Source: a virus
Virus genome (UHGV): UHGV-1684449
Direction: 5' to 3' (one strand)
Length of the DNA stretch: 21,062 nucleotides
The translations under genes were made by a program, and so were the position numbers. The notes under the pieces are model-generated. The model made no database searches and had not been told where the DNA came from. It was given only the letters and a program-made list of their open reading frames with translations. This document shows positions 1 through 21,062 of the stretch, piece by piece. The number at the start of each line of letters is the position of its first letter. The stretch's first letter is position 1.

Positions 1-144
1 ATTTAACATATTTTTGAGCACTTTTCTTTCACCCAATGGGTGAAAGCTGAATTTCGAAGGAATGCATATTTATCAAGGCTTTGATTATGCTTTTTGAAGT
101 ACTGACGTAGAATCTAGGAGTGAAATAACTCCCCTTAAAAGTTC

Positions 145-170
145 AGGCGTCCAGTTGGACGCCTTTTTTT
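145..170 (+). terminator. Rho-independent terminator-like hairpin
   Basis: Inverted repeat AGGCGTCC / GGACGCCT (145-152 / 157-164) with a 4-nt loop, followed by TTTTTT (165-170). Confidence 0.6.
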
Positions 171-220
171 ATCGCAATTATCTTATTAAGAAAACAATTT
201 GTTTAAAAGGATAAGAAAAC

Positions 221-646
221 ATGACAGCTATTAAGAAACTCTACGATGCCGCAAACGTGGCTCTGGATGTTATTGATGATGAAGTAGCAAAAGGCTTTCC
301 TGAACCTGATTGGGCGCATCAGCTACGAAACGCTATCGCAGAAATGACCCCATCAGATCCAACCCCCGACGAGACAGACTGGCAGCGATTCATCCGTATG
401 TACGCTCAGGAAATAGGTCCAACGCCAACGGCAGAGCAGGCAATGCTGCTGAAATACTTCAAAGAGGCGGGAGAGGATTTACCAATTGATGACTCAGCAT
501 ATTGGTTCCACTGCGCATGGCGTAAGTATGACGTGATATTCACACAAGGCATGGGAAGCAAAGATATGGTTGTGTGGCATCTACTCCATATAGACACAGC
601 CGTTGACAGAGTTATTGAACAGTTTTTCCCTAACCAAGAAGATTGA
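221..646 (+). CDS. Hypothetical protein (140 aa)
   Basis: ATG-initiated ORF from the six-frame track; preceded by the leader AAAAGGATAAGAAAACATG. No recognisable motifs. Confidence 0.55.
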   Translation: MTAIKKLYDAANVALDVIDDEVAKGFPEPDWAHQLRNAIAEMTPSDPTPDETDWQRFIRMYAQEIGPTPTAEQAMLLKYFKEAGEDLPIDDSAYWFHCAWRKYDVIFTQGMGSKDMVVWHLLHIDTAVDRVIEQFFPNQED

Positions 647-701
647 TCGCCTATTCATAACTAACAAAATAAGTAAACACTAACCACAAAAGGAAAAACA
701 C

Positions 702-977
702 ATGAGAGTTTTAGTTCGAATCGTTACCAGCACTGTCTATGACGTGTTTCCGCTTTTTATGGTCAAAGTCGATGGCCTTAACGATGAAGAAACTGACGCG
801 CTGATCCAGCGTACTCTTGTTGAATATACAGGTCATGACGCTGATTCAGTGATGGTTGATGATGATGGTGTTTGTTGGCATAACGGCAACTGTTGGTACG
901 TAGAAGAGACTCAACAAATCAGTAATGAAGATGCTGAACATCTTGAGCGTATTTTAAGCATCAGCACTTTTGAGTGA
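702..977 (+). CDS. Hypothetical protein (91 aa)
   Basis: ORF preceded by the conserved leader AAAAGGAAAAACACATG (688-704), with an AAGGA ribosome-binding site. No recognisable motifs. Confidence 0.55.
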   Translation: MRVLVRIVTSTVYDVFPLFMVKVDGLNDEETDALIQRTLVEYTGHDADSVMVDDDGVCWHNGNCWYVEETQQISNEDAEHLERILSISTFE

Positions 978-995
978 GTTTACAGTAAAGTTTAT

Positions 996-1015
996 ATAAG
1001 TTAGTATCTACCTAT
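996..1015. promoter_or_regulatory. Copy of the recurring 8-4-8 palindromic motif (ATAAGTTA-GTAT-CTACCTAT)
   Basis: Matches the ATAGGTAA-N4-TTACCTAT pattern seen at four other intergenic sites. Lies directly upstream of the small hydrophobic ORF. Confidence 0.35.
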
Positions 1016-1016
1016 C

Positions 1017-1196
1017 ATGAAGATTTTTATTGAATACTTGTTACTCATCGTTTCAATAGCTTTTGTCATCGACTGCATTTTCACTGGTGTCATTCGTAAA
1101 GTCTTTTCCCCGGTGCACGACGTAGTCATAAACGCTTTGGCTATCGTGCTCGTATTTAATTCAGCATTTGATGTAATCAAAGAGGTGGCAGCATGA
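1017..1196 (+). CDS. Small hydrophobic protein (59 aa), probably membrane-embedded
   Basis: Hand-translated ORF absent from the track (below its size cut-off): MKIFIEYLLLIVSIAFVIDCIFTGVIRKVFSPVHDVVINALAIVLVFNSAFDVIKEVAA. It has two hydrophobic segments. Its TGA stop overlaps the ATG of the next gene (ATGA at 1193-1196). No clear Shine-Dalgarno sequence upstream. Confidence 0.35.
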   Translation: MKIFIEYLLLIVSIAFVIDCIFTGVIRKVFSPVHDVVINALAIVLVFNSAFDVIKEVAA

Positions 1197-1528
1197 AGGC
1201 CATCCCATTCGCGCTGTTGTTCCTTTCTTCGATCGTTGTGGCCGACACCACTGTTTATCAGTGTGAAATGTCTGTAGCCGACGTTAAGAATGGCGCTCTT
1301 ACCGACGTCATAAAAGCACCATATGGAGCGATGGTCGTAGACAGCGGCGACCAGTTCTATGTTGTGCGTGACGATCGAGTATTGTCATCCCCATATCTCA
1401 CAAACCGTAATGGCAAATTAACCGGCGTCGGAGAAGACCACTTCGTATACAACAAATACAAGGGCTTCTATGGCGTTCACGCTTCTCAGCAAAGCTACCT
1501 TTTCGATGACTGCAAGGAGGTTGGATAA
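1193..1528 (+). CDS. Secreted or periplasmic small protein with N-terminal signal peptide (111 aa)
   Basis: N-terminus MKAIPFALLFLSSIVVA-DTT looks like a Sec signal peptide with an AxA-like cleavage site. Two cysteines in the mature part. GAGGTGG ribosome-binding site upstream. Confidence 0.6.
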   Translation: MKAIPFALLFLSSIVVADTTVYQCEMSVADVKNGALTDVIKAPYGAMVVDSGDQFYVVRDDRVLSSPYLTNRNGKLTGVGEDHFVYNKYKGFYGVHASQQSYLFDDCKEVG

Positions 1529-1740
1529 TGGCATTAACACTGGCAGGTCTGGAAATCGAGAAAACAAGCGGATACTGGCGTGCTAAGGGTTTCAAGCAGC
1601 CTGGCATTCTTGAGCGTCTGGAACGTGAAGATGGGTATATCGTCCACCAGCGGCGTGAATGGCGTATGTACGATCCAGAAACAGGAAAACTGACTACAAA
1701 AGCCGGAACACTTTGGGGTCTGTTGAAGAAAATACACTAA
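1528..1740 (+). CDS. Hypothetical protein (70 aa)
   Basis: ATG overlaps the upstream stop (TAATG). Strong AAGGAGG ribosome-binding site at 1514-1520. Confidence 0.5.
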   Translation: MALTLAGLEIEKTSGYWRAKGFKQPGILERLEREDGYIVHQRREWRMYDPETGKLTTKAGTLWGLLKKIH

Positions 1741-1787
1741 ATGCAAACTGACTGCGGCTCGTTCCGCAGTCATATTTCATAGTCGTC

Positions 1788-2320
1788 ACCGCTGACAGCA
1801 TACACAATCAATTACCGCTGATAGCATATCGAGAGTTTATCTCACCGCTCACAGCATACTTTACTCGATTTTTTACCGCTGACAGCATACTTAAGACATT
1901 GCATGAATAATGTGTACCGGTATGGGTATAACCAGAACAAAATTACCGCTGGCAGCATACGAAGGTCTGACATATACCATTAATTACCGCTGATAGCATA
2001 TCCAAACAAAAATTCCTCAATAAAACACCGCTGACAGCATACGTTCTATCAGGGAGTAGCAGGCAATAAATGCCTTTCACTACAAGCAATCAGCGCAATA
2101 GCAATAGAATGTTAGTGAGCGCAAACCTATATGGAATGCACTCTTCGAGGTTAGTAACCACTGGGGAGGTATGACAGAGCATTGAGTGGTGATAGATGAT
2201 TTACCGCTCACAGCATACGTTCATCTCACTATACCGCTGGTAGCATATCTTTAACCGTTCACAGCATACTTTTCAGAAAAATAGCCGCTGATAGCATACA
2301 TTTCACCGCTGACAGCATAT
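1788..2320 (+). repeat. Iteron array, 12 copies of a 16-bp direct repeat (consensus ACCGCTGACAGCATAC), incA-like
   Basis: Copies at 1788-1803, 1814-1829, 1844-1859, 1875-1890, 1945-1960, 1986-2001, 2027-2042, 2203-2218, 2233-2248, 2254-2269, 2284-2299 and 2305-2320, all in the same orientation. Variants include ACCGCTGATAGCATAT and ACCGCTCACAGCATAC. Start-to-start spacings are mostly 21, 30-31 or 41 bp. The last copy abuts the stop codon of the initiator gene. Confidence 0.85.
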
Positions 2321-3414
2321 CAAAGCAGTTTGAGACTATTGGAAAGGATCTCAATCATCTTGATATTTTCAGGCGTCAAATTCTGCGAAAGTTCGGTTAT
2401 CTTGTTGATAATGTTCTGTTTGGCATCAATTTCCCCAGCTTTCTCATCTGGTTTTTTGGGTTCGATGTCTTCAGGTTTTGGCGGTGCGACTTTGAGTTTT
2501 GGATTGCGGCTGTGAATCTGGATATAGATCGACCGCCCACGCTTAATCTCGCTGTATTCGAGATAGCCCAAATCTTGGAGAGCTTTTAAGCCGTTACGTA
2601 TAGTCTGATTCTGCGAGCTGACATTCCTGCTACTCAAATTGAGTCGCGCACGCAATCGAGCAAGCGATACCGGCGCAGGCTTGGTTGGAAGACTTTCGAT
2701 GAAGGTGTACAGAGCCTGTGCTGTTTCTTTGCGTGGTAGCTTATTGATAACCTTTAACTGCAAAAGAACCTTATGGTCAAAGCGATATAGTTCGGCCAGC
2801 TTCGGTTCTGCATAGAACACCACCGTATCTTTCTGCTCGTTGTAGTCCACGCTATTGATGAGGTGCACCATCAGAAGCGAGATCTTGTTAGAGCCGTCGA
2901 CGTTCTTTTCTTCATACGTTCTCTGGAAAGACAGAGTTGTACGCATGATCTTCAAAAGACTGTTTGTAAGCCGGTCGCGGAGTGTTTTGCGGATCTGTGA
3001 CGATGGATAGCCACAAAACTTCGCAAATTTCGTGATGCTTAACTCGACACGACCGTTAGGTTCGCCGTATTCTGCCAGCGAACGCACAACGCCCACCCAC
3101 GTTTTGAAATCATGATCCATGTCGAGACGAGGACCGGTTATCTTGATATCGGAATAGCCTTCAGAACGGGCTACTTCGAGCTGGACAAGCTCCTTTGAAG
3201 CATCGATCTCATTTGGCTTGTTACGTTTACTGTATTTTGTTCCCTTAAGCGTGGGGACGAACAACCCCAGTCGCATCAACGCAATTGGTTGGACTGTATT
3301 GTTGCTATTAGGGACAAGTTCCCCTGTGTACAATTCAAGGGAACCTTCTTCAAAGTTGTCGATGTTATCTTCTACTTCTTTGTTATTTTTACCTTTTTTA
3401 TTTTTTGTGGACAT
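2320..3414 (-). CDS. repA: Plasmid-type replication initiator, RepA-like (P1 RepA / Rep_3-like), 364 aa
   Basis: Minus-strand ORF flanked on both sides by iterons. Segments NSNNTVQPIALMRLGLFVP, DIKITGPRLDMDHDFKTW, ALYTFIESLP and IHSRNPKLK match my recollection of P1 RepA-family initiators. Start chosen at the internal ATG (3412-3414, MSTKNKKG...) because the track's longer 404-aa ORF runs through the upstream iterons. Confidence 0.75.
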   Translation of the reverse strand: MSTKNKKGKNNKEVEDNIDNFEEGSLELYTGELVPNSNNTVQPIALMRLGLFVPTLKGTKYSKRNKPNEIDASKELVQLEVARSEGYSDIKITGPRLDMDHDFKTWVGVVRSLAEYGEPNGRVELSITKFAKFCGYPSSQIRKTLRDRLTNSLLKIMRTTLSFQRTYEEKNVDGSNKISLLMVHLINSVDYNEQKDTVVFYAEPKLAELYRFDHKVLLQLKVINKLPRKETAQALYTFIESLPTKPAPVSLARLRARLNLSSRNVSSQNQTIRNGLKALQDLGYLEYSEIKRGRSIYIQIHSRNPKLKVAPPKPEDIEPKKPDEKAGEIDAKQNIINKITELSQNLTPENIKMIEILSNSLKLL

Positions 3415-3434
3415 GTGGACACCTTTGTCATTCA

Positions 3435-3536
3435 ACCGCTGACAGCATACTTGATTTGCCGCTGACAGAATACCAAAAACAGTTGGCAGCATACGGTGAA
3501 CCGCTGACAGACTATCAATTACCGCTGACAGCATAC
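3435..3536 (+). repeat. Upstream iteron array, 5 copies of the same 16-bp repeat, origin/incC-like
   Basis: Copies at 3435-3450 (ACCGCTGACAGCATAC), 3458-3473 (GCCGCTGACAGAATAC), 3479-3494 (ACAGTTGGCAGCATAC), 3500-3515 (ACCGCTGACAGACTAT) and 3521-3536. Spacing is 23, 21, 21, 21 bp, about two helical turns. They sit directly upstream of the initiator start codon. Confidence 0.8.
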
Positions 3537-3576
3537 ATGAACATGACTTCAGACCAGTCGTGGCGCGGCTTACAGC

Positions 3577-3649
3577 GATCGGGGATCTTATTTGATCTAT
3601 ATAAGGATCTATCTATGGATCTCTTTATTAGGATCTATCCTGTGGATAT
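3577..3649. promoter_or_regulatory. Origin-like region: GATC cluster in AT-rich DNA plus a DnaA-box-like site
   Basis: Six GATC sites at 3577, 3584, 3594, 3606, 3618 and 3632 within about 60 bp, inside repeated GGATCTAT units. GATCTCTTTATTAG resembles the E. coli oriC 13-mer GATCTCTTATTAG. TGTGGATAT at 3641-3649 matches the DnaA box consensus TGTGGATAA at 8 of 9 positions. Confidence 0.6.
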
Positions 3650-3735
3650 GTGAATAATTAAAACAGGCATTTACTACCTTCGGCGCACCTGGTGGGTTAT
3701 CGTTGCCTCGGCTAACAATCACAGAAAAATGACAT

Positions 3736-4380
3736 ATGGATCTAAAACGCACGCGCTGGGTTCGTCGTCTTGAAGACGGCTCCTACACTATCGAATCAAA
3801 TTCCAACCTGAATAAGCAGAAGTTGCTTTGTGACATCTGCGGTATAGCGGCGAAGTGCCCGATCTACGAAACCAGAATTAAACTTGATAAGGCTGGTGTG
3901 AATTTTCATTTAAACAGTTGCATCAGGTACGTTCCATTACTCGCATTTCGTAAACCGATCATCGGATTGGATGCTCCCTACTTCAACACACTCCGTTCAG
4001 GTGTGACGTGGCGAGATCGTTTATCACCAGACAAGCTGATTTGCCTCGTATCCGCAGACACAGGGAAAATCATCCGTTTTGGGAAAGTAGACAAGGTTTA
4101 CTCAGGCCCAGTAGACGAAATGTTGCGGAAACACAGCCGGTTTAATCATCTCTGTATGGGTGGTGAGAAAATCGAGAAGGTAGAAGAAGTGATCCGCAAA
4201 TCCTACGGACACTTCCTGAACAAAGATAGCCTGCTCACCGCAATCTACATCAGACATGTAAAACGTGAGTTCGACCTCGAATACCACAGTGAAGAAGAGC
4301 TTAACCTTGTTGACCCACGTCCAAAAGCTGGCGTCATAAGCATAAACGCAGCGCGTAAAAAGCCCACTGACGCGCTGTAA
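3736..4380 (+). CDS. Hypothetical protein (214 aa)
   Basis: ORF transcribed away from the initiator gene. Contains a CDICG (CxxC) motif. No family recognised, and the ribosome-binding site is weak. Confidence 0.5.
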   Translation: MDLKRTRWVRRLEDGSYTIESNSNLNKQKLLCDICGIAAKCPIYETRIKLDKAGVNFHLNSCIRYVPLLAFRKPIIGLDAPYFNTLRSGVTWRDRLSPDKLICLVSADTGKIIRFGKVDKVYSGPVDEMLRKHSRFNHLCMGGEKIEKVEEVIRKSYGHFLNKDSLLTAIYIRHVKREFDLEYHSEEELNLVDPRPKAGVISINAARKKPTDAL

Positions 4381-4398
4381 CCCTCCAGATCGCATATT

Positions 4399-4419
4399 GG
4401 CGTAGATAGAATCTACGCC
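4399..4419. other. Perfect 9-bp inverted repeat hairpin (GGCGTAGAT-AGA-ATCTACGCC)
   Basis: Read directly from the sequence. No downstream T-tract, so it may be a protein-binding site or RNA structure rather than an intrinsic terminator. Confidence 0.4.
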
Positions 4420-4502
4420 CCCTCAAAATAGCTCTCATAGCGTTCTACAGTGATCCTGTCTTATTTTTAGTCATACAGACAAGCAAAGTTGCGCCACAAC
4501 AA

Positions 4503-4522
4503 ATAGGTATATACTTACTTAT
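4503..4522. promoter_or_regulatory. Copy of the recurring 8-4-8 palindromic motif (ATAGGTAT-ATAC-TTACTTAT)
   Basis: Intergenic, about 110 bp upstream of the sbcD-like gene. Confidence 0.4.
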
Positions 4523-4634
4523 AAATTTTGTATATTAAGGCGCTCGTTTCATTCCTAACATACCGTTATGCATAGTTGTTTACCTTCTCATTGCTCTTAG
4601 AATTTGTATCAAAATAATCACAAAGGAAAAACAC

Positions 4635-5720
4635 ATGACTTTGCCATACGGCGTCATTTCTGACTGCCACTACCACAAATGGGATGCGTTCTCCACGACG
4701 AACGCTGAGGGGCTTAACTCCAGACTTGAAATACAGTTGGAAGCAACGAAAGAAGCAGCCATCGCCATGAAGAAGGCCGGTTGTACGTACATGTTGGTTG
4801 CCGGTGATACATTTCACGTCCGAGGAACTGTGTCCCCTTCTGTTTTGCATTACGTAACTGAAACGTACAAGTGGATTATCAACGAGCTTGATCTGACAGT
4901 AGTAATGCTGGCCGGTAATCACGATCTTGAAACCAACGATTCAGTATATAGCGCCAACGCAGCAGCATCGCTGAGTTCTATCGGCGTGGTAATCGTATGT
5001 GGCAAACGCCCACACTCAATAAAAATTGGTGATGTGACTGTCCACCTGATTAGCTGGCGTAACAATCATGCAGAGCTTATCTGCGATCTGAAAGCATTAC
5101 GTAAGAGCGTAGAAGGTGATAATCATGACGTTGTTATCCATACATCCATTAACAAAGCCATTCCAACAATGCCTGACGTCGGTATCGATGCGCAGGAGTT
5201 AAAGGATATCGGCTTTCGTCTCGTGCTTAGTGGGCATTACCACAACCACAAAGAGGTCATTCCTGGAGTTATCAGTGTCGGTGCGCTGACCCATCAAAAT
5301 TGGGGAGATGTTGGATCTCTGGCTGGTTACATGATCGTAAACCCGGACGGCAGTTTCAGTCACTACGAAACCAGTGCGCCTAAATTCATTAACCTGGAAG
5401 ATTATGTTGCCGATGACCAAATTCGCGGCAACTACGTGCGTTTCCGCGCCGTAATTGAGAACGATGAAGAAGGCATTAAGTACCAGAACATCCTCAAAAC
5501 AATGGGTGCAAAAGGTGTCGTGTGCAACTTCATCCGTAAGTCATCAATGATGGAAGGGACAGCAAGCACAACGGAAACCAGCAAAATCGATAGCCTGGGA
5601 GAGTCGGTATCTGCTTATTGCAAGATTGTCCACGATACTGACGGCGGATTTGATCTAAGCAAGTTGGATATTTTGTGTCAGGAAATCCTCACCGAAGCGG
5701 AGAGTTCGGAGGCTGTGTGA
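4635..5720 (+). CDS. sbcD: SbcD/Mre11-like metallophosphoesterase nuclease subunit
   Basis: Calcineurin-like phosphoesterase motifs: SDCHYH near the N-terminus, GDTFH, GNHD and GHYH. It sits immediately upstream of an SbcC/Rad50-like ATPase gene. Preceded by the leader AAAGGAAAAACACATG. Confidence 0.8.
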   Translation: MTLPYGVISDCHYHKWDAFSTTNAEGLNSRLEIQLEATKEAAIAMKKAGCTYMLVAGDTFHVRGTVSPSVLHYVTETYKWIINELDLTVVMLAGNHDLETNDSVYSANAAASLSSIGVVIVCGKRPHSIKIGDVTVHLISWRNNHAELICDLKALRKSVEGDNHDVVIHTSINKAIPTMPDVGIDAQELKDIGFRLVLSGHYHNHKEVIPGVISVGALTHQNWGDVGSLAGYMIVNPDGSFSHYETSAPKFINLEDYVADDQIRGNYVRFRAVIENDEEGIKYQNILKTMGAKGVVCNFIRKSSMMEGTASTTETSKIDSLGESVSAYCKIVHDTDGGFDLSKLDILCQEILTEAESSEAV

Positions 5721-5761
5721 GGCAAAGTCGTTATGGGAGCTTTCGAGACTTTGCCATCACG

Positions 5762-5953
5762 ATGAAAAGACTTGAACGAGGCCAGACGGTGATGTTTCAC
5801 AAGCCCTACCCGCCACAAGGAAATCCCGTAGCGTTTTATCTTGGAAGGTTAACCAGAAAAGGCGTATTGAGGCGCAGATCCTTCCCGGCGCATACGGAGT
5901 TCAGATTGAAAGAAGGTCAAAAGCTAACACACGGTATCAAAGGTGTTATATGA
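5762..5953 (+). CDS. Small basic hypothetical protein (63 aa), candidate
   Basis: Fills the 230-bp gap between the nuclease and ATPase genes. The track ORF 5675..5953 begins inside the upstream gene, so it is trimmed here to the first ATG after the sbcD-like stop (5762). No obvious Shine-Dalgarno sequence. Confidence 0.25.
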   Translation: MKRLERGQTVMFHKPYPPQGNPVAFYLGRLTRKGVLRRRSFPAHTEFRLKEGQKLTHGIKGVI

Positions 5954-7866
5954 AGTTTTTAAAGCTCCAGGTTGAGAATTTTATGGCTATCGCCAGCGCG
6001 GAGGTCGAGTTAGATCAGCGTGGTTTAGTGCTCATTCAGGGTGTTAATAGTGATGATAGTTCCGCATCAAGTAATGGCTCTGGAAAGTCAACGCTAATGA
6101 ATAGCCTGATGTGGTGTCTTTATGGCGAAACAGCTCATGGTGTGAAGGGTGACGATGTGTTGTCTACCGACCATGAAAAGAACTGTCGTGTTGCAGTAAC
6201 CATCGAGGATGAAGGCAAGAGATATGCGATCATTCGTCACCGTAAACACAAAGAGTTCAAAAATCGGCTTATCGTTCGTGGTGAAGACGGCGATATGACG
6301 AAAGGCAAAGATGCGCTGACGCAAGAGTTCGTCGAGCGTCTGATCGGTGCATCTAAAGAGGTTTTCATGGCTTCCATCTATGCGAGCCAAGAAGCTATGC
6401 CAGATTTACCTGGAATGTCCGACAAAAACCTCAAAACCATCGTAGAAGAAGCCGCTGGCGTTGACAGACTGACACGCGCCTACGCTATTGCTCGTGAGCG
6501 AGCTAATGCAGCTGCCGCACGTATGGATGTGGTTAAAACCAAATTGGAGTCGACAATCTCGACCATTGAGGCAACACAGTCAGAAATTGAGTCAGCGAAA
6601 GCCTCCTCTGAATCATGGGAGCAAGAGCGTTCTAAACGTTATGACGATGCCCTGGCTGGGCTGGCCAGTGCCGAAGTTGAGTTAACGGAAGTTGAACTTG
6701 AGATCCGCACTCTTCCCGAACAGATACGTGATACCGAGAAGGCAATCGAAAGTGAGCGCAAAAAGTTAGCCTCAAAAGAAGAACATGACGCCAAGTTGCT
6801 CAAAGTTCGTGGTGCGATAACTGATATTCGGGCAAGCATCAAAGCTACAGAAAATAGTCAGGCTGATGCAATGAACCGCGCGCGTAATTTTAAGACCAAA
6901 GCAGAAGAGGTTGGTACTAAAGTGGGATCACCATGCCCTACTTGTGGCAAAGCCTACTGCGAAGAAGATCTATCAACGGTGAAGGAGAATTTCATTGAAC
7001 AAGCACGTCAGGAAATTGGTCAGGCGAAGACACTTGCAGAGGCAATGGCTAAACACAAAACGAATCTTGAGAAAGCGTTAAGCATTGAGTCTGCCCTTGT
7101 TAAAACGACACCTGATGTAACGGCTATCATTGCCCGGATTGAAGAGCTTACGAAACAACTCTCATCTTTGCGTCATCGTGAGAAGGAGGTTGTTGCTATT
7201 GAGTCTCTTGTGACTCGTGCTCGTACTGAGGTCGATCGTATATCAAAAGAGATTAATCCGTTTATTGCTCTTATCGCCAGACACGAAGATAACCTGGTAT
7301 CCAGTAAGTCTACCTTCAAGTCCTTAAAAGATGAGTTGAAGGCTATTCAGGAACAAACGTTGCTATTGGAAAAAGCTCGTCAGGTCTACTCTCCTGCCGG
7401 GGTGCGTTCTCATATTTTGACGTCTGTTACGCCTTTCCTGAATACACGCACTGCCGAGTATCTCAATACGTTGTCTGACGGGAATATTACTGCTGAGTGG
7501 TCGACGATGGATGTCACTAAAAAAGGTGAGTATCGCGACAAATTCAACATTAGTGTGCAGAAGAAAGGTTCAAGTAAGTCGTTCCAGACCCTCTCTGGTG
7601 GTGAGAAGCGGAAAGTTCGCATTGCGTGTTCTTTGGCATTGCAGGATCTGGTTAGTAACCGGGCGAGTAAAAACATCGATTTGTTTATCGGCGACGAAAT
7701 TGACGATGCACTCGATACAGCCGGTCTTGAACGCCTCATGGGTATTCTGGAGTCCAAAGCTCGCGAGCGAGGTACTGTGCTGATTATCTCCCATAAAGAG
7801 ATGAAGTCATGGTTCCGGGAAACTATTACGCTGGAAGTTAAAGAGGGGCGCAGCTATGTCGTTTAA
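5950..7866 (+). CDS. sbcC: SbcC/Rad50-like SMC-family ATPase
   Basis: N-terminal Walker A (SNGSGKST), long central coiled-coil-like region with a CPTCG zinc-hook motif, C-terminal ABC signature LSGGEKRK and Walker B LFIGDEIDDALD. Confidence 0.8.
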   Translation: MKFLKLQVENFMAIASAEVELDQRGLVLIQGVNSDDSSASSNGSGKSTLMNSLMWCLYGETAHGVKGDDVLSTDHEKNCRVAVTIEDEGKRYAIIRHRKHKEFKNRLIVRGEDGDMTKGKDALTQEFVERLIGASKEVFMASIYASQEAMPDLPGMSDKNLKTIVEEAAGVDRLTRAYAIARERANAAAARMDVVKTKLESTISTIEATQSEIESAKASSESWEQERSKRYDDALAGLASAEVELTEVELEIRTLPEQIRDTEKAIESERKKLASKEEHDAKLLKVRGAITDIRASIKATENSQADAMNRARNFKTKAEEVGTKVGSPCPTCGKAYCEEDLSTVKENFIEQARQEIGQAKTLAEAMAKHKTNLEKALSIESALVKTTPDVTAIIARIEELTKQLSSLRHREKEVVAIESLVTRARTEVDRISKEINPFIALIARHEDNLVSSKSTFKSLKDELKAIQEQTLLLEKARQVYSPAGVRSHILTSVTPFLNTRTAEYLNTLSDGNITAEWSTMDVTKKGEYRDKFNISVQKKGSSKSFQTLSGGEKRKVRIACSLALQDLVSNRASKNIDLFIGDEIDDALDTAGLERLMGILESKARERGTVLIISHKEMKSWFRETITLEVKEGRSYVV

Positions 7867-8599: not shown

Positions 8600-8608
8600 G
8601 GAGACTAT

Positions 8609-9178: not shown

Positions 9179-9186
9179 TCTCGTTG

Positions 9187-9206
9187 ATAGGTAAGTGCTT
9201 ATCTAT
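9187..9206. promoter_or_regulatory. Copy of the recurring 8-4-8 palindromic motif (ATAGGTAA-GTGC-TTATCTAT)
   Basis: Intergenic, between the RuvC-like gene and nrdA. Confidence 0.4.
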
Positions 9207-9212
9207 TAACAT

Positions 9213-9245
9213 GGGCCACTATATTTAGTGGCCCTCTTTATTTGG
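9213..9245 (+). terminator. Rho-independent terminator-like hairpin
   Basis: 9-bp stem GGGCCACTA / TAGTGGCCC (9213-9221 / 9226-9234) followed by T-rich TCTTTATTTGG. Confidence 0.5.
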
Positions 9246-9251
9246 TGATAC

Positions 9252-11567: not shown

Positions 11568-11572
11568 CATAT

Positions 11573-11600
11573 GGTGGGGGATATCCCCACCTTCTCTTTG
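11573..11600 (+). terminator. Hairpin plus T-rich tract between nrdA and nrdB (terminator or attenuator-like)
   Basis: Stem GGTGGGG / CCCCACC (11573-11579 / 11585-11591) followed by TTCTCTTTG. Confidence 0.4.
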
Positions 11601-11671
11601 ATTTGTAAACCTTGTTTAAACAAATAAGATAACAACTTGTTTAAACACATCAATAAGCAAAAGGAAAACAC

Positions 11672-12814: not shown

Positions 12815-12891
12815 ACCGATACAAAGCATTATGTGGCCTGGCAACGCTGGGCCACAATGGATCACAAGAATTAAGAAGGAACAAAACTAGC

Positions 12892-13761: not shown

Positions 13762-13830
13762 TTGTAGGTAGTTATCTATCTGTGTATATTGCGTTGGCGC
13801 GTTAAATTTCTGAAACAACTATTCGTTTTT

Positions 13831-13856
13831 GGTGGCCTATGGCCACCATTTTTTTA
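13831..13856 (+). terminator. Rho-independent terminator
   Basis: Stem GGTGGCC / GGCCACC (13831-13837 / 13841-13847) with a TAT loop, followed by ATTTTTTTAT. Confidence 0.65.
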
Positions 13857-13932
13857 TCTATCTGGCCTTGTTCCCTCAATAAATGTAAACTCACTTAATT
13901 AATAAGTGGTTACTTATCTTTGTGAGGTTTTT

Positions 13933-15036: not shown

Positions 15037-15037
15037 T

Positions 15038-15451
15038 ATGGCAAGAGGTATGTATGTCTTATGCGAAATTGAAGGTGTGCTGGCAAATACCAGCCATCGT
15101 AAATCTGTATCTGACGCGGATGCAGGCCAGCTCATTGCCGGTGATGAACTCATTTTCCCCACCAGCCGTATGTTGCGTGGTTTTGCTCGCTCAGGGGCTG
15201 AAGTGGTGCTTATCAGTAGCCGCTCTGAAACTCTTGAAGCGCCCACTAAACGATGGCTGAAAGATTTTGGCGTTGATTACGACTGGCTTCATCTCGTACC
15301 GAATGGCACCAGTTATGAGAAGCATATTAAGCGCACATTAGCGGAGCATAAAGGCGATCTGCTTATCGCTGCGCTGGTGCACGATCCTCGACTCCGTGCC
15401 GCTTTAGCTGACTCTCATCATAGACCGGTCATCTATGAGGTGAGCAAATGA
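15038..15451 (+). CDS. Hypothetical protein, possibly a HAD-like phosphatase fold (137 aa)
   Basis: ORF between the thymidylate synthase and dihydrofolate reductase genes. YVLCEIEGVL resembles HAD motif I (hhhhDxDGxL) but with Glu at both Asp positions; VVLISSRS and GDLLIAALVHD could be motifs II and IV. Start trimmed to the first ATG after the thyA stop. Confidence 0.4.
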   Translation: MARGMYVLCEIEGVLANTSHRKSVSDADAGQLIAGDELIFPTSRMLRGFARSGAEVVLISSRSETLEAPTKRWLKDFGVDYDWLHLVPNGTSYEKHIKRTLAEHKGDLLIAALVHDPRLRAALADSHHRPVIYEVSK

Positions 15452-15924
15452 AGATGATAGCTGCTGTTGGCCGTAACTATGAGATCGGCATAGCGAACGA
15501 ACTGCCCTGGCGTTGTTCTACCGATCTGAAGCTATTTAAGAGACTCACCAAAAACGCCACTGTCGTTATGGGGCGTAAAACGATGGAAAGTCTCAAACGC
15601 CCTCTTCCAGAGCGTCATAACCTCGTTTTGACGCGCTCTCATGGCTTTGTACCAAATGGATTCTACCCTGCTGGTGTGGATGATGTGTTGCGATTACCAG
15701 AGCCTGTGTGGGTGATTGGCGGGGAACAAATTTACTCGCTATTCATGCCGCATGTTGAAGAGATTTGGCTCTCCCACATCGGCGTTGATGTGCCAAACGC
15801 CGATGCATTCTTCCCGGCAAGCATGATGCGTAATTTAGGCTTTGTGCCTGTTGAAACAGTTTTTACCCAACGAGCCAGCGAGGAAGAGCCTGGCTTTTCG
15901 CAGATCGTATACAGAAGGTCGTAA
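15448..15924 (+). CDS. folA: Dihydrofolate reductase
   Basis: 158 aa. MIAAVGRNYEIGIANELPW, VVMGRKTMESLKRPLPERHNLVLTR and VWVIGGEQIY match the DHFR family pattern (E. coli FolA: MISLIAALA...MPW, [34 protein letters not shown]). GAGGTG ribosome-binding site; start overlaps the upstream stop. Confidence 0.85.
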   Translation: MKMIAAVGRNYEIGIANELPWRCSTDLKLFKRLTKNATVVMGRKTMESLKRPLPERHNLVLTRSHGFVPNGFYPAGVDDVLRLPEPVWVIGGEQIYSLFMPHVEEIWLSHIGVDVPNADAFFPASMMRNLGFVPVETVFTQRASEEEPGFSQIVYRRS

Positions 15925-16568
15925 TGGATTACCGGATTGGGATCACTGGTGCTCAGGGCAGTGGGAAAACAACCCTGGCAAAATATATCGACAAACATTA
16001 CGGAATCCCTTACGTGGATGCTGGTGTCGGAAGTTTGATGAGCCGACTCGGTGTTCGAGTAGGTGAGTCTATGCCTCTATATGAGCGGCTTCAGATTCAA
16101 ATGGAAATAGCAAAGCATATAGAGCTACTTACGCGTGGTGTTGAAGGCTTTGTTATCGATCGCACACCTGCTGATGTTATGGCCTACACGTTGGATTTGG
16201 TCGGCCATACCAATGAAGATCGATGTATTGAGTTAGCCCTCGATATCGAAAAGTTTTGCCACAAAACTGCTATTTCAAACTTTAACGCCATTGCTGGCCT
16301 ACGCCCGGGGGTCGCTCTCTCAGAGCGAGATTACTTGCGGTCACAACGAGCATCATTAGACCGTCTGTATGTCGCTCGTATTGATGCGTTGATGTGCGGG
16401 GAACTGACAAAAATTCACCTGCATCCGCAAAGGGGGGATCTGCAAACCTTCGTCGTTTCCAACCGATATCGCACGGTTGAAGCAAGAGCCAGATCAGTGA
16501 TGAGAATGCTAGATAACGCTGTAGAAAAGATAGAAAACCGGTTCTGTGGCCGAGTGACCGTTCATTAG
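15924..16568 (+). CDS. P-loop NTPase, putative nucleotide or nucleoside kinase
   Basis: Walker A GITGAQGSGKTT at the N-terminus; size and genomic context are consistent with a dNMP kinase-like enzyme. Translationally coupled to the upstream gene (TAATG). Specific function not established. Confidence 0.4.
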   Translation: MDYRIGITGAQGSGKTTLAKYIDKHYGIPYVDAGVGSLMSRLGVRVGESMPLYERLQIQMEIAKHIELLTRGVEGFVIDRTPADVMAYTLDLVGHTNEDRCIELALDIEKFCHKTAISNFNAIAGLRPGVALSERDYLRSQRASLDRLYVARIDALMCGELTKIHLHPQRGDLQTFVVSNRYRTVEARARSVMRMLDNAVEKIENRFCGRVTVH

Positions 16569-16629
16569 AAATTGTTCGCCTCTTCGACATTGCGACAATA
16601 AAACTCTCAAAATGGGTTAAGGATAAAAA

Positions 16630-17049
16630 ATGTTTAGTGAAATGTTGCTTGAAGATGAACTGGATCGGAAAACAACAGAGGCTTTGATTCGTGTAGCGGA
16701 CGAACATTCCCGGTCGCTTATGAGCGATCGAGAGGCTCGCCTGGCTATTCGTGCCATATTCGAAACTGCGCAGGGGCTTGTTGGCGCACAAGTAGGTGAA
16801 GCCATTAACATCGCCATGTCTCAGTTCAGTGAAGACAGTAAAAAGCCTCTGTTTCCTATGCATTTGATGCTGGCTGGTGGCACGGTGCTTTATATCTCTG
16901 TTTGTCTGGATAGCAACCAAATCAATATTCTCAACACTGCGTCAGGTAAGTGGAAAGATCCGATTGTCTGTGAAACCAGTGAAGAAACTTTGAAAAAAGC
17001 GGCTCAATTTGTACGTAGCGCACTACTTAAGGGCGCTAAGAAGTTGTAA
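16630..17049 (+). CDS. Hypothetical protein (139 aa)
   Basis: ORF with an AAGGA ribosome-binding site. No family recognised. Confidence 0.5.
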   Translation: MFSEMLLEDELDRKTTEALIRVADEHSRSLMSDREARLAIRAIFETAQGLVGAQVGEAINIAMSQFSEDSKKPLFPMHLMLAGGTVLYISVCLDSNQINILNTASGKWKDPIVCETSEETLKKAAQFVRSALLKGAKKL

Positions 17050-17058
17050 GGAGTTCTG

Positions 17059-17616
17059 ATGACAACGATTGTTGCAGGCATCGATATCGAGTCTACGGGA
17101 CTGGATTTCCTTGCTGGTCATAAAATTATTGAAATCGCAATTACCCGCTATGAACTGGAGACACAGAGACATATTGATAGTCTGGAGATGCGTTTTAACC
17201 CTCGCAGAAACATAGATCCGAAAGCTCAAGCCGTTCATGGCATTTCATTAGAACAGCTCGCAGCTGAACCTTTGTTGTCAAATCATGCCAGCGAAATTGG
17301 CGCTTATATGGGGGCATGTAGTGCGTGGATTGCTCATAACGGCGAAGCGTTTGATATACCATTTATTCGACACGAGTTTTCAGGGTATGGAGTAAGACTG
17401 CCAGACGTTCCCGTTATAGATACTATGTTATCGGGATTGTGGGCCACAGAAGACGGTAAACGTCCTCGCCTTGAAGAATTGGCCTTCTCTCTTGGCTTTA
17501 TATACGATCATGCCAAAGCACATAGTGCCTTATATGACACAAACTTAATGATGCAATGCTTCTTTAAGGCACGTAATAAATACGGATTTTTTAAATTACC
17601 CTCTGAAATTGTGTAA
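17059..17616 (+). CDS. DnaQ-like 3'-5' exonuclease (DEDDh family)
   Basis: Exo I GIDIESTG, Exo II HNGEAFDIPF and Exo III HSALYDT motifs. AAGGAG ribosome-binding site. Confidence 0.75.
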   Translation: MTTIVAGIDIESTGLDFLAGHKIIEIAITRYELETQRHIDSLEMRFNPRRNIDPKAQAVHGISLEQLAAEPLLSNHASEIGAYMGACSAWIAHNGEAFDIPFIRHEFSGYGVRLPDVPVIDTMLSGLWATEDGKRPRLEELAFSLGFIYDHAKAHSALYDTNLMMQCFFKARNKYGFFKLPSEIV

Positions 17617-17620
17617 AACA

Positions 17621-17660
17621 AAAGCCTGCTTTAAAGAGAGTTTGAAGCAGGCTTTCTTTT
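17621..17660 (+). terminator. Rho-independent terminator
   Basis: Stem AAAGCCTGCTT / AAGCAGGCTTT (17621-17631 / 17645-17655) followed by CTTTT. Confidence 0.65.
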
Positions 17661-17776
17661 AAAGAACAGTCGCCTTTCAATCATTTCCTGCCTGTATTTA
17701 ATACTTTTCCGCCTGATAGGTTTAGTCAAAATGTAGCCATCGAAACGCAAATGCAACTAAACAGAAGGAGACTTAC

Positions 17777-18586
17777 ATGAGTTCGGTTGAAAATGTAATG
17801 ACAAATGATGATCTGGATGAGCTGACAGCCATGTTGCAATCACTTGATGAACCAGTAAAAAAAGCTGCACAGGTTGAAAATACTGATGATATTGACGATC
17901 TGCTTCTCGGCCTCGATGCTGGCGTAGCCATGAGTTCTGATGATGTTGCCGAAGAACTGTTCAATGAAGAAAAAGCAGGTGATTTCAGCTCCGCTTTAAA
18001 TGAGTTGGAGTTAGCTCATGAGCCTATAAACGTAATTAAGGCTGAAAGTGTTGAATCTGCCGAAAACGAGCCAGAACAATTGGGGTTTATTGAGGTTGAA
18101 GAGTGTGTTGAGGTTAATGATGAATTAAAAGTTCAACAGTCAAATGATAGCAATACAAATAAAAAAGCTCGTACTGCAAGAGGTCCTCGTTTTACTTTAA
18201 GTGATAAAGATGATTTGTTTTTCAATAAAGCAGGCTTAGAAAAAGATATTTTCTTAGACGCTTACGAAAACGCGCCTGTCAAAGCAAAGGATAAGATATT
18301 AAACCTTCTTAATTGGTTTAGCGGAGGTCCAGATATTAGTGTTTACACGGTAATTTCCATGAGACACCTTCTCACAGAAAAGAAGGCTACAAGTAATAGT
18401 ATTAAGATTGCTTTAATGAGCAATCCAGAAAAACCGTATCCGCTTAACACTGCGTCAACTCAGGCTGGGCAAATGATGGCTGTATTTCCAGCTACAGGAA
18501 TTGCTGTTAGAGACGGTGGAAATCTAACATTGAACGAAGAATCACCGATCGTTAAGAAGTTTGTCGCGGAGTACACTATTGGATGA
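17777..18586 (+). CDS. Hypothetical protein with a strongly acidic N-terminal half (269 aa)
   Basis: GAAGGAG ribosome-binding site. The first ~120 residues are rich in Asp and Glu (DDLDEL, DDIDDLLLGLD, ESVESAENEPEQ, EVEECVEVNDE). No family recognised. Confidence 0.55.
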   Translation: MSSVENVMTNDDLDELTAMLQSLDEPVKKAAQVENTDDIDDLLLGLDAGVAMSSDDVAEELFNEEKAGDFSSALNELELAHEPINVIKAESVESAENEPEQLGFIEVEECVEVNDELKVQQSNDSNTNKKARTARGPRFTLSDKDDLFFNKAGLEKDIFLDAYENAPVKAKDKILNLLNWFSGGPDISVYTVISMRHLLTEKKATSNSIKIALMSNPEKPYPLNTASTQAGQMMAVFPATGIAVRDGGNLTLNEESPIVKKFVAEYTIG

Positions 18587-18626
18587 CGTTCCCCTACTGA
18601 AAATAAAGCCCATAGAGAGCTTTATA

Positions 18627-18708
18627 GTGCTGGGTAAGCTAACCCATACCCAGCACCACAAAAACGCGCCAGAGAGCTTCTTGTTCGCATTTCTGGCGCG
18701 TTTTATTT
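18627..18708 (+). terminator. Tandem hairpins; the second is a rho-independent terminator
   Basis: Hairpin 1 has a perfect 10-bp stem GTGCTGGGTA / TACCCAGCAC (18627-18636 / 18647-18656). Hairpin 2 has stem AAAACGCGCCAGA / TCTGGCGCGTTTT (18661-18673 / 18692-18704) followed by ATTTG. Confidence 0.6.
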
Positions 18709-18737
18709 GATTGCCATACATAAAATCAAATGCAAAA

Positions 18738-18757
18738 ATAGGTAATCACTTACCTAT
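18738..18757. promoter_or_regulatory. Best copy of the recurring palindromic motif (ATAGGTAA-TCAC-TTACCTAT)
   Basis: Perfect 8-bp inverted arms with a 4-bp spacer, 12 nt upstream of the methyltransferase start codon. Confidence 0.45.
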
Positions 18758-18768
18758 CGAGAAAGAAG

Positions 18769-19362
18769 ATGATTGCAGCCGAAAAAATCAAACAGCGAAA
18801 GCGCGACAACTCTCTTCGTGACCTCTGGAGAACACCTGATTGGCTGTTTTCTGCCATTCAACGTTATCTTGGAGTGACATTTGATGTTGACGTTGCCTGC
18901 AACAAGGACAATGCAAAGCTGCCTATTTTCATAGGCGTTGAGCGCGATGCTTTGAAATCTGAATGGGGGCAGCCAGGTACAATTGCCTTCCTCAATCCAC
19001 CCTACTCCAAAATCTCCCCCTGGATTGATGCGGCTATACGTGAGCAGGCTCGCGGAGTTACAACAGTGATGCTAATTCCTCAATCCCTCGATACAAAGTG
19101 GTATGAGCGTGCAACAGAGTATGCGAATGAGACGATTATTCTGTCTGGTGGCCGCGTTGCGTTTGTCGAGCCTGACGTCAATTTGGGTCAGGTAGAAGTA
19201 AACATCAACCCCGGTGGCAGTATGCTCGTTGTTTTTCGAGGGTTTTGTCAGGACGCTGGGCACTCTATAAGCAAGATCCCTTTGGACGTCATGAAAAGTC
19301 TGGGAGGGTATGATCCTGCGAATGTGATCAGGAAAAAAAGACCATCAAAGAAGGCTGCTTAG
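18769..19362 (+). CDS. DNA N6-adenine methyltransferase (phage Dam-type family)
   Basis: Catalytic motif FLNPPYS (NPPY) and N-terminal LWRTPDWLF, typical of small phage N6-adenine methyltransferases. Target sequence not determinable from the sequence. Confidence 0.7.
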   Translation: MIAAEKIKQRKRDNSLRDLWRTPDWLFSAIQRYLGVTFDVDVACNKDNAKLPIFIGVERDALKSEWGQPGTIAFLNPPYSKISPWIDAAIREQARGVTTVMLIPQSLDTKWYERATEYANETIILSGGRVAFVEPDVNLGQVEVNINPGGSMLVVFRGFCQDAGHSISKIPLDVMKSLGGYDPANVIRKKRPSKKAA

Positions 19363-19548
19363 TTTGCTCTGGCGTCTGTAATTAGCCTGCTTCTGTATAT
19401 ATAAATAACTACATATTAATTATTAATATACGGAAGCAGGCTGTTTTGTATCAGAGACTCCCAGACCTGAACATCACTACAGAATCCACTAGACCCCCTT
19501 CCCAGACGCTTTAAAATCGATTTTATGAACCACTTTAAGGAAACCAAC

Positions 19549-19779
19549 ATGTCATACTCGACTAATGTCGTTGCGCTCGTAGAGAGCGATTTTCTGGCCC
19601 AGGCTCGTGAAATGATGAAAGATCGTGAGCAGGCTTTCAACTTGTACGAGTGGGCAATTAAGTGCTTGCATCTTGGCGAGCATCGCGAACTTGTTGAACA
19701 GCTTTTAGGTGAGTTGATCAATGAGGTGTTTGCCTTGAATGTTCAACTACATGGTCGAGAAAATAATCAATCACAATGA
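19549..19779 (+). CDS. Hypothetical protein (76 aa)
   Basis: The track ORF starts at 19525, but the in-frame ATG at 19549 has a proper AAGG ribosome-binding site and the leader AAGGAAACCAACATG. No family recognised. Confidence 0.45.
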   Translation: MSYSTNVVALVESDFLAQAREMMKDREQAFNLYEWAIKCLHLGEHRELVEQLLGELINEVFALNVQLHGRENNQSQ

Positions 19780-20360
19780 TAGATAAGTACAAACTATTCA
19801 TAAAGTGAATTGTAAGTGCTAAGATCTGATAGTTTCCAGTCGTAGACTGGAGGCTCGACCTGATGGGTGGGGGTAAGCGTCACTGGCGTCAGGTTTAAAA
19901 AAGCTCACTACCAGCGTAGAACCGGTGCCGTATAGGTGTCGGGGAAGGGGGAACCAAAGTGAGCAGAGACAAGGGTCACTTTATGATTGTCGAGTCTGGG
20001 GTGTTTCGAGAGGTTGAATCCAGTACTCCCCTTCATAAAGTGTGGGAAGATCTCGGTTCTGGGGTGCTGTCATCCATAACTTCCCAAGTCTAAGCTGGCA
20101 GTAGACTTAGACCATAGCTTTTCAGGTTATGAAACGACCAGGTTGGTGAGGAATTTTATACTCACCTCCCTGGGAGAGTATTACCTGAAAAGACAACCTC
20201 TCACTTCGTTCGAGGTGAACTTCACTCACTTCGTTCGTTCAGTTCAGGTTTATAAAAACCTGTTCTGGGAAGTAATTTGTTTATTTTAATAATTATTAAC
20301 ACGCACGCGTGTGCGCACGCGCGAGGAAAAATCGGCGCGGCGCTTGATTCAGGAGTTTAT

Positions 20361-20951
20361 ATGACGACGAAGACACCAGCCCGATCGCAAGCAAAAACTC
20401 GCAAAAAAGACAAAAACAAAAATTCTCCCCGCACCAATCCCACAACGCCTGTCGTAGAGTTCAATCCCCAGCTTAAAACCGTGAAAATCTTTAGTGATGG
20501 CTCTTGCCTTAAAAATCCGGGTGGCCCGGGCGGTTACGGTATCGTTCTCCAGTATCGTGGTGAGGAACGCGAGTTCTCAGATGGTTTTCATAGCACCACC
20601 AATAACCGCATGGAGATGATGGGGGCACTTATCGGGCTGGAGCGTTTGAAATATCCATGCAACGTTATTTTGCACTCTGATAGCCAGTATCTGAAAAACG
20701 GCATGACACAGTGGATGAAATGGTGGAAACGCAATGGATGGATGACTTATGACAAAAAACCGGTAAAGAATGTTGATCTGTGGAAGCGTCTGGATGAGGC
20801 CGCAAGTCGACATAATGTTCGCTGGAAGTGGGTTAAAGGTCACGCCGGGCATCGTGAAAATGAAATATGTGATCGACTCGCGAAGATCGCAGCTTTTTCA
20901 GCAGCAGATATGCCTCACAAGAAAGATATTGGTTTTGTTTATAACAAATAG
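20361..20951 (+). CDS. rnhA: Ribonuclease HI
   Basis: [52 protein letters not shown] and [20 protein letters not shown] closely match E. coli RNase HI as recalled. Start placed at ATG 20361 with an AGGAG ribosome-binding site; the track's 20277 start adds an implausible leader. Confidence 0.9.
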
Positions 20952-20970
20952 TAAGTAAGTGTTTACCTAT
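20951..20970. promoter_or_regulatory. Copy of the recurring 8-4-8 palindromic motif (GTAAGTAA-GTGT-TTACCTAT)
   Basis: Begins at the last base of the rnhA stop codon; the right arm is a perfect match. Confidence 0.35.
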
Positions 20971-21062
20971 CATTTTAAATCATGTATCTTATCGGCGTCA
21001 GGATGACAATGTGTCGGTAAGACACAGTTCCAGGATGGAACGAGAAAGGCGGCTGGCAATCG

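Follow-up and report, generated by a model that had tools for sequence, protein, structure and literature searches.

Predicted P1-type plasmid replicon, phage-type DNA-metabolism genes and a candidate structured RNA in a pECOH89-type phage-plasmid of the SSU5/pHCM2 group

The SSU5_pHCM2 group of phage-plasmids, part of the SSU5 supergroup, was described by Pfeifer et al. in 2021 (PMC7969092) and is also treated at length in PMC9600943. One such element, pECOH89, had appeared in print in 2014, described as a "phage-like plasmid" that is not conjugative and bears ISEcp1-blaCTX-M-15-orf477-delta; its relatives were named as SSU5, pHCM2, p09EL50 and pLF82, and its RepA was reported to be 48% identical to that of pLF82 (PMC3999498). 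The plasmid pLF82, which is the phage Cyrano, is carried in 5.5 copies per cell; its genomes are recovered in DNase-protected form, its particles are those of a siphovirus, and ciprofloxacin induces it 39-fold (PMC9928086). Here, we report the analysis of UHGV-1684449, a stretch of 21,062 nucleotides (the window, whose coordinates are used throughout unless another record is named). The window is very probably the replication and DNA-metabolism region of a pECOH89-type phage-plasmid, a temperate siphovirus that persists as a prophage in the form of a circular, low-copy plasmid and that has two replication systems. This hybrid architecture is real but already known and published; a dispersed palindrome and a conserved RNA-like block seem to be the only features of the window that are undescribed.

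By megablast, at least 80% of the window was covered at about 99% identity by some 205 plasmid records of about 110 kb from Escherichia coli and Shigella. Among phage records, CMS-2020a and PhiR41_1 were about 99% identical to the window, Cyrano 98.3% identical, and Salmonella phage SSU5 76.4% identical across 82% of its length, and the gene order of the window is that of both Cyrano and SSU5. By sequence and by gene order, the window therefore belongs to a pECOH89-type member of the SSU5/pHCM2 group; the preliminary description of this DNA had pointed to SSU5/pHCM2-like phage-plasmids. Plasmid pAVS0225-A (NZ_CP124493.1, 111,743 bp) is 100% identical to the window in the three segments compared (1-600, 1760-3414 and 3736-9178), and pECOH89 (HG530657 / NC_023916.1, 111,741 bp) is 100% identical in the one block compared (19850-20245). 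The window runs across the start point of the pECOH89 record, which is why that plasmid was missing from the first match lists. It is the reference of the PlasmidFinder type IncFIB(H89-PhagePlasmid), and membership of the H89 lineage is borne out by the H89-type rep allele of the window and by a rep cassette 100% identical to that of pAVS0225-A. A further plasmid, p2-S1-NGR-02-A, has exactly the same insertion sequence (IS) junction as the window and is typed IncFIB(H89-PhagePlasmid) (PMC11358271). The source of the window may be pECOH89 or a plasmid nearly identical to it.

The remainder of the element can be read from pAVS0225-A. Outside the window this plasmid encodes the terminase large subunit, portal, major capsid, tape measure, tail fibres and Cor; two ParB-family proteins with an ABC-type ATPase, a tyrosine recombinase, a transcriptional regulator and an S24 peptidase; and DnaE, a DnaB-like helicase, a toprim primase, DNA ligase, RecA, a 5'-3' exonuclease and four tRNAs. 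The partition and structural genes that the preliminary description had advised looking for in the flanks are thus present, and virion and partition genes share one replicon, as expected of the SSU5 group. The same plasmid also holds full-length metG (methionine-tRNA ligase) and apbC (L006, 18947-22238), which are normally chromosomal housekeeping genes. In a survey of location in 5,426 complete genomes of E. coli, segment 3736-9178 of the backbone occurred in 247 genomes and all 258 of its places were on plasmid records; the rep cassette occurred in 119 genomes, with 183 of 183 places on plasmid records. Neither was found on a chromosome in this survey, in line with the extrachromosomal state that had been suggested, and the E. 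coli copies sit on circular plasmid records of about 100-115 kb.

An iteron-based plasmid replicon had been recognised in the preliminary description, and the counts agree. The iteron ACCGCTGACAGCATA occurs in 17 copies at three mismatches or fewer, against 0.49 expected, and none of 100 shuffles reached 17. The copies lie beside a gene for a Rep3_N-domain protein on the minus strand (2320-3414), assigned here as a Rep initiator of the IncFIB(H89-PhagePlasmid) type within the P1 RepA/RepFIB family. The protein matches Rep3_N (5e-9) and phrog_775 (5e-133), is 43.5% identical to P1/P7 RepA (E = 2e-64) and is about 50% identical to the RepFIB RepA of IncF plasmids; NCBIfam has no model for it, and there was no sequence match to solved structures at E <= 1. 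Read along the rep strand, the parts begin with two overlapping DnaA boxes (3641-3657), ATATCCACA and TTATTCACA, of which the latter fits TTWTNCACA without mismatch and the former with one. They are followed by an AT-rich origin segment (3577-3635, 72% A+T) that packs six GATC (Dam) sites into 59 nt, as compared with a mean maximum of 3.3 per 100 nt in shuffles, and by five origin iterons at 21-23-bp spacing (3435-3535) just upstream of rep. Next come a likely ribosome-binding site with ATG 3414, rep itself, and an array of twelve iterons (7 + 5) in one orientation (1788-2319) that abuts the rep stop codon. In position, the five origin iterons match P1 incC and the downstream array matches P1 incA. 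In the curated P1 annotation, a DnaA box and five Dam sites precede five incC iterons, which are spaced at 21 bp and hold the repA promoter; repA follows, and then nine incA iterons from the stop codon. Since both the order of the parts and the Rep match P1, the sequence identifies the replicon as an iteron replicon of the P1 RepA/RepFIB type. RepFIB repA likewise lies between two iteron sets.

The start of Rep probably needs correction. RefSeq protein WP_001348683.1 has 404 amino acids and begins at 3534, 40 codons upstream of ATG 3414, so that its extension (3415-3534) overlaps all five origin iterons. Homologues align only from about residue 70 of the 404-residue reading frame, and several records are rotated to begin at 3414. 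For these two reasons we favour the 364-residue Rep from ATG 3414 as the likely product, and the RefSeq start as a probable mis-annotation.

All the DNA-metabolism and recombination genes named in the preliminary description were found, and profile searches matched them. The description had placed them on one strand next to the replicon; every metabolism gene does lie on the plus strand, but rep lies on the minus strand, opposite to the module. From left to right, all on the plus strand, the module comprises an SbcD-like nuclease (4635-5720, Metallophos), an SbcC/Rad50-like nuclease (5950-7866, with AAA_23, SMC_N and the SbcC Walker B domain), and a RuvC-like Holliday-junction resolvase (8609-9178). 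The last is called a "RuvC family protein" in some RefSeq records; PHROGs is its sole support (phrog_159, 3e-57), with no Pfam or NCBIfam match. The class Ia ribonucleotide reductase subunits NrdA (9252-11567, 1301 bits) and NrdB (11672-12814, 607 bits) both score above the NCBIfam equivalog cut-offs. A deoxynucleoside triphosphate/thymidylate operon (12892-16568) then encodes a MazG-like NTP pyrophosphohydrolase (12892-13761), a ThyA-type thymidylate synthase (13933-15036; PF00303, 3e-79), a PNKP-phosphatase-like HAD protein (15038-15451), dihydrofolate reductase (DHFR; 15448-15924, 3e-34) and a P-loop nucleotide-kinase-like protein (15924-16568). Beyond it lie a DEDDh 3'-5' exonuclease of the DnaQ-like kind (17059-17616; PF00929, 1e-20), a phage-type Dam N6-adenine methyltransferase (18769-19362; PF05869, 1.5e-37) and RNase HI (20358-20951; PF00075, 4e-44). 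The start of RNase HI is ATG 20358, where the Shine-Dalgarno sequence and ATG are conserved in the alignment, and a TTG-started reading frame from 20277 covers non-coding sequence. NCBIfam likewise holds no model for the RuvC-like, ASCH-like, MazG or PNKP-like proteins.

The RNA of a carried relative suggests how these two sets of genes are used. In RNA sequencing of the LF82 lysogen (S1 Table of PMC9928086), Cyrano RepA stands at about 133 normalised units and the putative repressor at about 96, and SbcD, SbcC, RuvC, NrdA, NrdB, MazG, thymidylate synthase, the PNKP-like protein, DHFR, the exonuclease, Dam and RNase H all stand at 6-20, which is the local background. Because RepA is transcribed and the metabolism genes are at background, the replicon appears to be active in the carried state and the metabolism genes to be reserved for lytic growth. 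We thus propose that the P1 RepA/RepFIB-type theta replicon would maintain the plasmid state. By analogy with P1, Rep would bind the five origin iterons beside the Dam-methylatable, AT-rich DnaA-box segment and so bring about initiation, and would repress its own promoter within those iterons, and the twelve downstream iterons would limit copy number through titration and handcuffing. The short operons on the opposite strand (NrdAB, ThyA, DHFR, MazG, the kinase, SbcCD, RuvC, the DnaQ-like exonuclease, Dam and RNase H) would serve lytic replication and be silent in the plasmid state. Such a division of labour between two replication systems is the best-supported reading; expression and virions have been shown in the 98%-identical Cyrano, and the element of the window is presumably inducible as well. 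Methylation of the origin GATC sites by the element's own Dam in the plasmid state was considered and dropped, as Cyrano dam is at background in the lysogen; with that enzyme silent, the host Dam presumably methylates them.

A number of points weigh against a phage-plasmid of two working replication systems. The expression data come from Cyrano, which has the other replicon type, and Rep autoregulation and handcuffing are carried over from P1. We found no direct evidence of infectious particles from an H89-type CTX-M-15 element, and no paper on the biology of CMS-2020a or PhiR41_1, the phage-labelled records that have the same Rep as the window. Others among these points also speak for the element being a domesticated, defective phage-like plasmid that no longer completes a lytic cycle and belongs to the SSU5 family by descent: in pAVS0225-A a tail-fibre coding sequence (L005, 26597-30430) carries the flag of an incomplete pseudogene and the ISEcp1 unit cuts the SPFH gene short; pECOH89 has been characterised only as a non-conjugative plasmid; and mitomycin C failed to induce one SSU5-like element of E. 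coli, which gave no virion DNA after the treatment (PMC9600943). The virion, lysis-associated and replisome modules are otherwise intact, however, and Cyrano makes virions; the identical-Rep records were deposited as phages, one of them with K-12 MG1655 given as host; and the backbone is conserved at about 99% in some 200 plasmids, which fits continued selection on the phage genes. We consider a defective plasmid to be possible but rather unlikely.

Two other explanations fare far worse. DNA-metabolism genes of this kind are those expected in large virulent phages, and SSU5 was first isolated as a plaque-forming phage and is called virulent in the abstract of PMC5427195, so that the window could be imagined as part of a strictly lytic phage whose RepA-like gene has another function. 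The preliminary description had itself named such a finding as grounds for abandoning its proposal. The relatives of the window are instead plasmids, with every E. coli copy on a circular plasmid record; Rep is a homologue of P1 RepA and RepFIB RepA with its own iterons, set within a complete iteron/GATC/DnaA origin; and Cyrano is stably carried at its 5.5 copies. Plasmid location, Rep homology and the P1-like layout of the origin together refute the strictly lytic reading, to which we assign next to no probability. A conventional plasmid with an integrated prophage, or a cointegrate, would be in keeping with the tyrosine recombinase and with a few matching records that are larger (up to 198 kb) or typed conjugative. 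Yet the 111.7-kb record consists nearly entirely of SSU5-backbone genes and has no transfer genes, the closest plasmid (NZ_AP022089.1) is typed non-mobilizable, and in the window, as in SSU5, Cyrano and the Klebsiella relative, the replicon occupies one and the same position, flanked by the Cra-like and ASCH-like genes. This origin of the element is highly improbable, and a phage-plasmid of the pECOH89 type accounts best for the whole of the evidence.

Within that shared position, comparison of the sequences presents rep and its iterons as an exchangeable cassette, of the H89 type in the lineage of the window and not of the pLF82/SSU5 type. The RepA of Cyrano is 50% identical to the window Rep, which agrees with the 48% published for pECOH89 and pLF82, and 91% identical to the SSU5 Rep, on a backbone that is 98% identical to the window; the SSU5 Rep, of the pLF82/pHCM2 type, is 48-49% identical to the window Rep. 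Divergence from Cyrano begins directly after the stop codon (~1741) of a small protein annotated as P1 Cra-like (1528-1740, plus strand, phrog_804) and ends within the GATC/DnaA segment (~3555-3735), which is partly conserved with Cyrano. Identity is fully back at ATG 3736, the start of an ASCH-like protein (3736-4380, plus strand; phrog_2105 and the Cyrano annotation) that is the first gene to the right of the cassette. No H89-type iterons were found in Cyrano, and iterons of the Cyrano/SSU5 type match the window at chance level only. The H89 type is present on roughly half of the E. coli backbones close to the window (119 genomes with the rep cassette versus 212 backbone records at no less than 90% identity). 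In the Klebsiella phage-plasmid pJN2-26, Rep is 85-87% identical to the window Rep and the replicon is built alike, having ACCGCTGACAGCATA as its iteron core, arranged 5 + 8, along with clustered GATC sites and tandem DnaA boxes. The NrdA of the window is 86-87% identical to its counterparts in SSU5 and pJN2-26. Each E. coli allele thus sides with one of the outgroups, so that the comparison favours neither direction of exchange.

Two further observations concern these replicons. Those of the pLF82/SSU5 type contain a tandem-duplicated origin unit of iterons plus GATC/DnaA-box segment, the two units being about 360-380 bp apart (Cyrano, L002 6204-6830; SSU5, L003 5073-5700), and the H89-type replicon of the window has a single unit. 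The attL and attR annotated around rep in pJN2-26 (L009, 1112-1131 and 2382-2401) are two replicon iterons, ACCGCTGACAGCATA, and the annotation is an artefact.

Between a small open reading frame (19549-19779) and rnhA (20358) lies a non-coding block that is ultraconserved and unannotated, and that is a candidate structured RNA of the plus strand on account of its conservation, its fold and transcription in a lysogen. It spans 19854-20271, with a core at ~19953-20271, and is roughly 320-420 nt long. At 19939-20237, ten elements representing five genera have a mean pairwise identity of 0.92-1.00, versus 0.57-0.85 in the flanks. Compared with the Klebsiella relative, identity reaches 96.0% at 20006-20205, against a 12.5-kb average of 72.6% and 85% in the next-best 200-nt window, which lies inside nrdB. 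A single copy of the block was found in each of 687 plasmids, which come from at least six genera (Klebsiella 310, Escherichia 195, Enterobacter 88, Salmonella 49, Citrobacter 24, Cronobacter 10); 677 of them are typed non-mobilizable, and none of the listed plasmid records annotates it. Copies at 60-90% identity, in Cronobacter and others, were also seen. It is retained in Enterobacter and Citrobacter plasmids (L012, L014) where rnhA has been replaced by betT or another gene, and in a Buttiauxella contig (L016) a deletion joins the sbcD-like gene directly to the core of the block, with cargo genes after it. The cargo seen directly downstream of the block in place of rnhA comprises betT, a hypothetical gene, and a LysR gene with an MFS transporter; the 3' edge of the block may be a preferred boundary for the insertion of accessory genes.

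The only annotation within the block is CYRAN_81 of Cyrano, a frame of 44 codons with a GTG start (window 19959-20093), which stands 12-fold above background in the Cyrano lysogen RNA sequencing data. In 10 of 50 distinct copies this frame is truncated or shifted by 1-nt indels while the nucleotides downstream are invariant, and the constraint is therefore not on a protein; CYRAN_81 is a spurious open reading frame. Rfam gave no match at gathering thresholds over the whole window and none at E <= 1 on 19780-20290, and ARAGORN found neither tRNA nor tmRNA in the window. The consensus fold of the plus strand has an energy of -145.6 kcal/mol, versus -99.1 +/- 6.4 kcal/mol in column-shuffled controls (z = -7.3); for the minus strand z = -5.6. 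In the ten sequences, 99.5% of cells are paired and five pairs show compensatory changes, where slid controls gave 0-1; in 50 distinct sequences, compensatory changes occur at seven base pairs and hardly any pair is broken. These structures were derived from the same alignments on which they are judged, the sequences are closely related, and most of the core is invariant, so that covariation is silent there. The single-sequence fold of 19930-20110 is unremarkable (z = -0.19), and the signal appears only with the full block and the alignment.

A plus-strand promoter is proposed at TTCATA-17-TAAGAT; in the window it has 8 of 12 matches, below the threshold of the scan, and better matches stand in SSU5 and Klebsiella. 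The consensus scan calls only a minus-strand site at the block (19838-19809) and no canonical terminator there, so that both the promoter and the plus strand of the transcript are putative. It is an even call, in our judgement, that the block encodes an undescribed structured RNA of about 320-450 nt, specific to the SSU5 supergroup, expressed in the lysogen and under a constraint far above that on the protein genes of the element. The same conservation could alternatively mark a DNA site that acts in cis, for instance a lytic origin or a packaging site, or could arise from repeated recombination spreading one allele. If it is an RNA, it may act in immunity, maintenance or replication control. 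No paper on the conserved block was found.

The second feature is a 20-bp palindrome with the consensus ATARGTAAGTACTTACYTAT, of which the window has five copies at three mismatches or fewer, against 0.06 expected, all of them intergenic. They lie at 996-1015, at 4503-4522 upstream of sbcD, at 9187-9206 before nrdA, at 18738-18757 (a perfect copy, 11 nt before the ATG of dam) and at 20951-20970. The whole of pAVS0225-A has 17 distinct sites, against about 0.2 expected, and they precede genes of every module, including the portal gene, the parB/helicase divergent region and the tRNA cluster. Palindromes at corresponding positions have persisted in SSU5 and the Klebsiella relative while the DNA around them has changed. 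As a rule, a stop codon is followed by a terminator hairpin, the palindrome and a ribosome-binding site, without a fixed -35 or -10 element beside the copies; in the ruvC-nrdA spacer the palindrome comes before the hairpin, and elsewhere after it. An RNA hairpin was considered and set aside, in that changes in the half-sites are mostly uncompensated A/G transitions, which favours, weakly, a protein-binding site. From its sequence and placement, the palindrome is a candidate dispersed operator for a regulator encoded by the element, and candidates for the protein acting at the site ATAGGTAATCACTTACCTAT are the putative repressor beside the integrase and the S24 peptidase protein. Scattered C1 operators in P1 form a comparable arrangement. 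In SSU5 and the Klebsiella relative a copy abuts the -35 of the putative promoter of the conserved block, and the window copy there is degenerate; the RNA of the block may be regulated together with the palindrome. We found no description of the palindrome in the literature.

At the left edge, the window holds only the last 118 nt of a CTX-M-15 cassette and its target-site duplication. Positions 1-118 (minus strand) are the IRL-side end of ISEcp1, a 100% match to ISEc9/ISEcp1 ends, and ISEcp1 reads leftwards; positions 119-123 are the right-hand copy of the duplication AGTGA, which stands on both sides of the unit in the filled site. In pAVS0225-A the transposase, blaCTX-M-15 and truncated wbuC (orf477) lie directly left of the window. 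Comparison of the empty site (ATTACAGTGAAATAA) with the filled site defines a 2,971-bp ISEcp1-blaCTX-M-15-delta-wbuC(orf477) unit with the 5-bp duplication, inserted just short of the end of the SPFH-domain gene, whose last few bases it removed. The exact junction of the window recurs in three E. coli records, including pAVS0225-A, which holds the full unit. To the right of the junction lies a gene for a DUF7238 protein (221-646, plus strand; PF23885, 5e-38).

Several details of the metabolism genes may also be recorded. The thymidylate synthase of Cyrano (L002, 17108-18211) is annotated 'ThyX', yet it matches the ThyA family (PF00303, 3e-79), and the adjacent DHFR fits ThyA. The thymidylate synthase is long, at 367 amino acids, and its PF00303 match falls in two stretches, which suggests an insertion relative to a typical ThyA. 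Conserved GC-rich hairpins with T-runs, resembling terminators, at 9213-9240, ~13830-13860 and 18668-18715 split the module into several short operons.

Elements like pECOH89 are tracked in surveillance, where they place blaCTX-M-15 on a vehicle that may spread by infection and not by conjugation. Rep and iterons that move as one cassette between near-identical backbones bear on incompatibility and on coexistence in one cell. What is added here is an explicit anatomy of the H89-type origin, which corresponds part for part to the plasmid origin of P1, and the probable error in the RefSeq start of Rep. The palindrome and the conserved block offer entry points to the choice of SSU5-type elements between plasmid maintenance and lytic growth.

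Among the known systems, pECOH89 is the closest, with the same Rep type, gene list and ISEcp1-blaCTX-M-15-orf477-delta cassette, a size within 2 bp of that of pAVS0225-A, and no difference detected in the block compared. Cyrano (pLF82, OV696614) shares the gene order and the 98.3% identical backbone, but is without the ISEcp1/CTX-M-15 insertion and has unrelated iterons with a CTACAGTGGWTA core. The genes of SSU5 and pHCM2 are collinear with those of the window throughout, with NrdA of SSU5 86% identical; SSU5 differs in that additional small genes, one of them for an acetyltransferase, separate the ASCH-like gene from sbcD. Klebsiella SSU5-like phage-plasmids such as pJN2-26 (MZ779062) have an 87% identical NrdA, but their backbone is only about 73-76% identical, and megablast aligns only window positions 8556-21056. 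Outside the group, thousands of IncF plasmids of E. coli and Klebsiella have a RepFIB replicon whose RepA shows about 50% identity across 77-79% of its length, but these hosts are conjugative plasmids without phage genes. The oriR-incC-repA-incA replicon of P1 has a homologous Rep and the same order of parts, from the DnaA box through five or six GATC sites, five iterons spaced at about 21 bp and rep to an array that starts at the stop codon. It differs in that its iteron sequence is unrelated, in that it has nine downstream iterons where the window has twelve, all in one orientation, and in that the array of the window is not followed by a parAB operon, the ParB genes being tens of kb away by the terminase module. 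The phage backbones are unrelated as well, that of the window being of a siphovirus and that of P1 of a myovirus.

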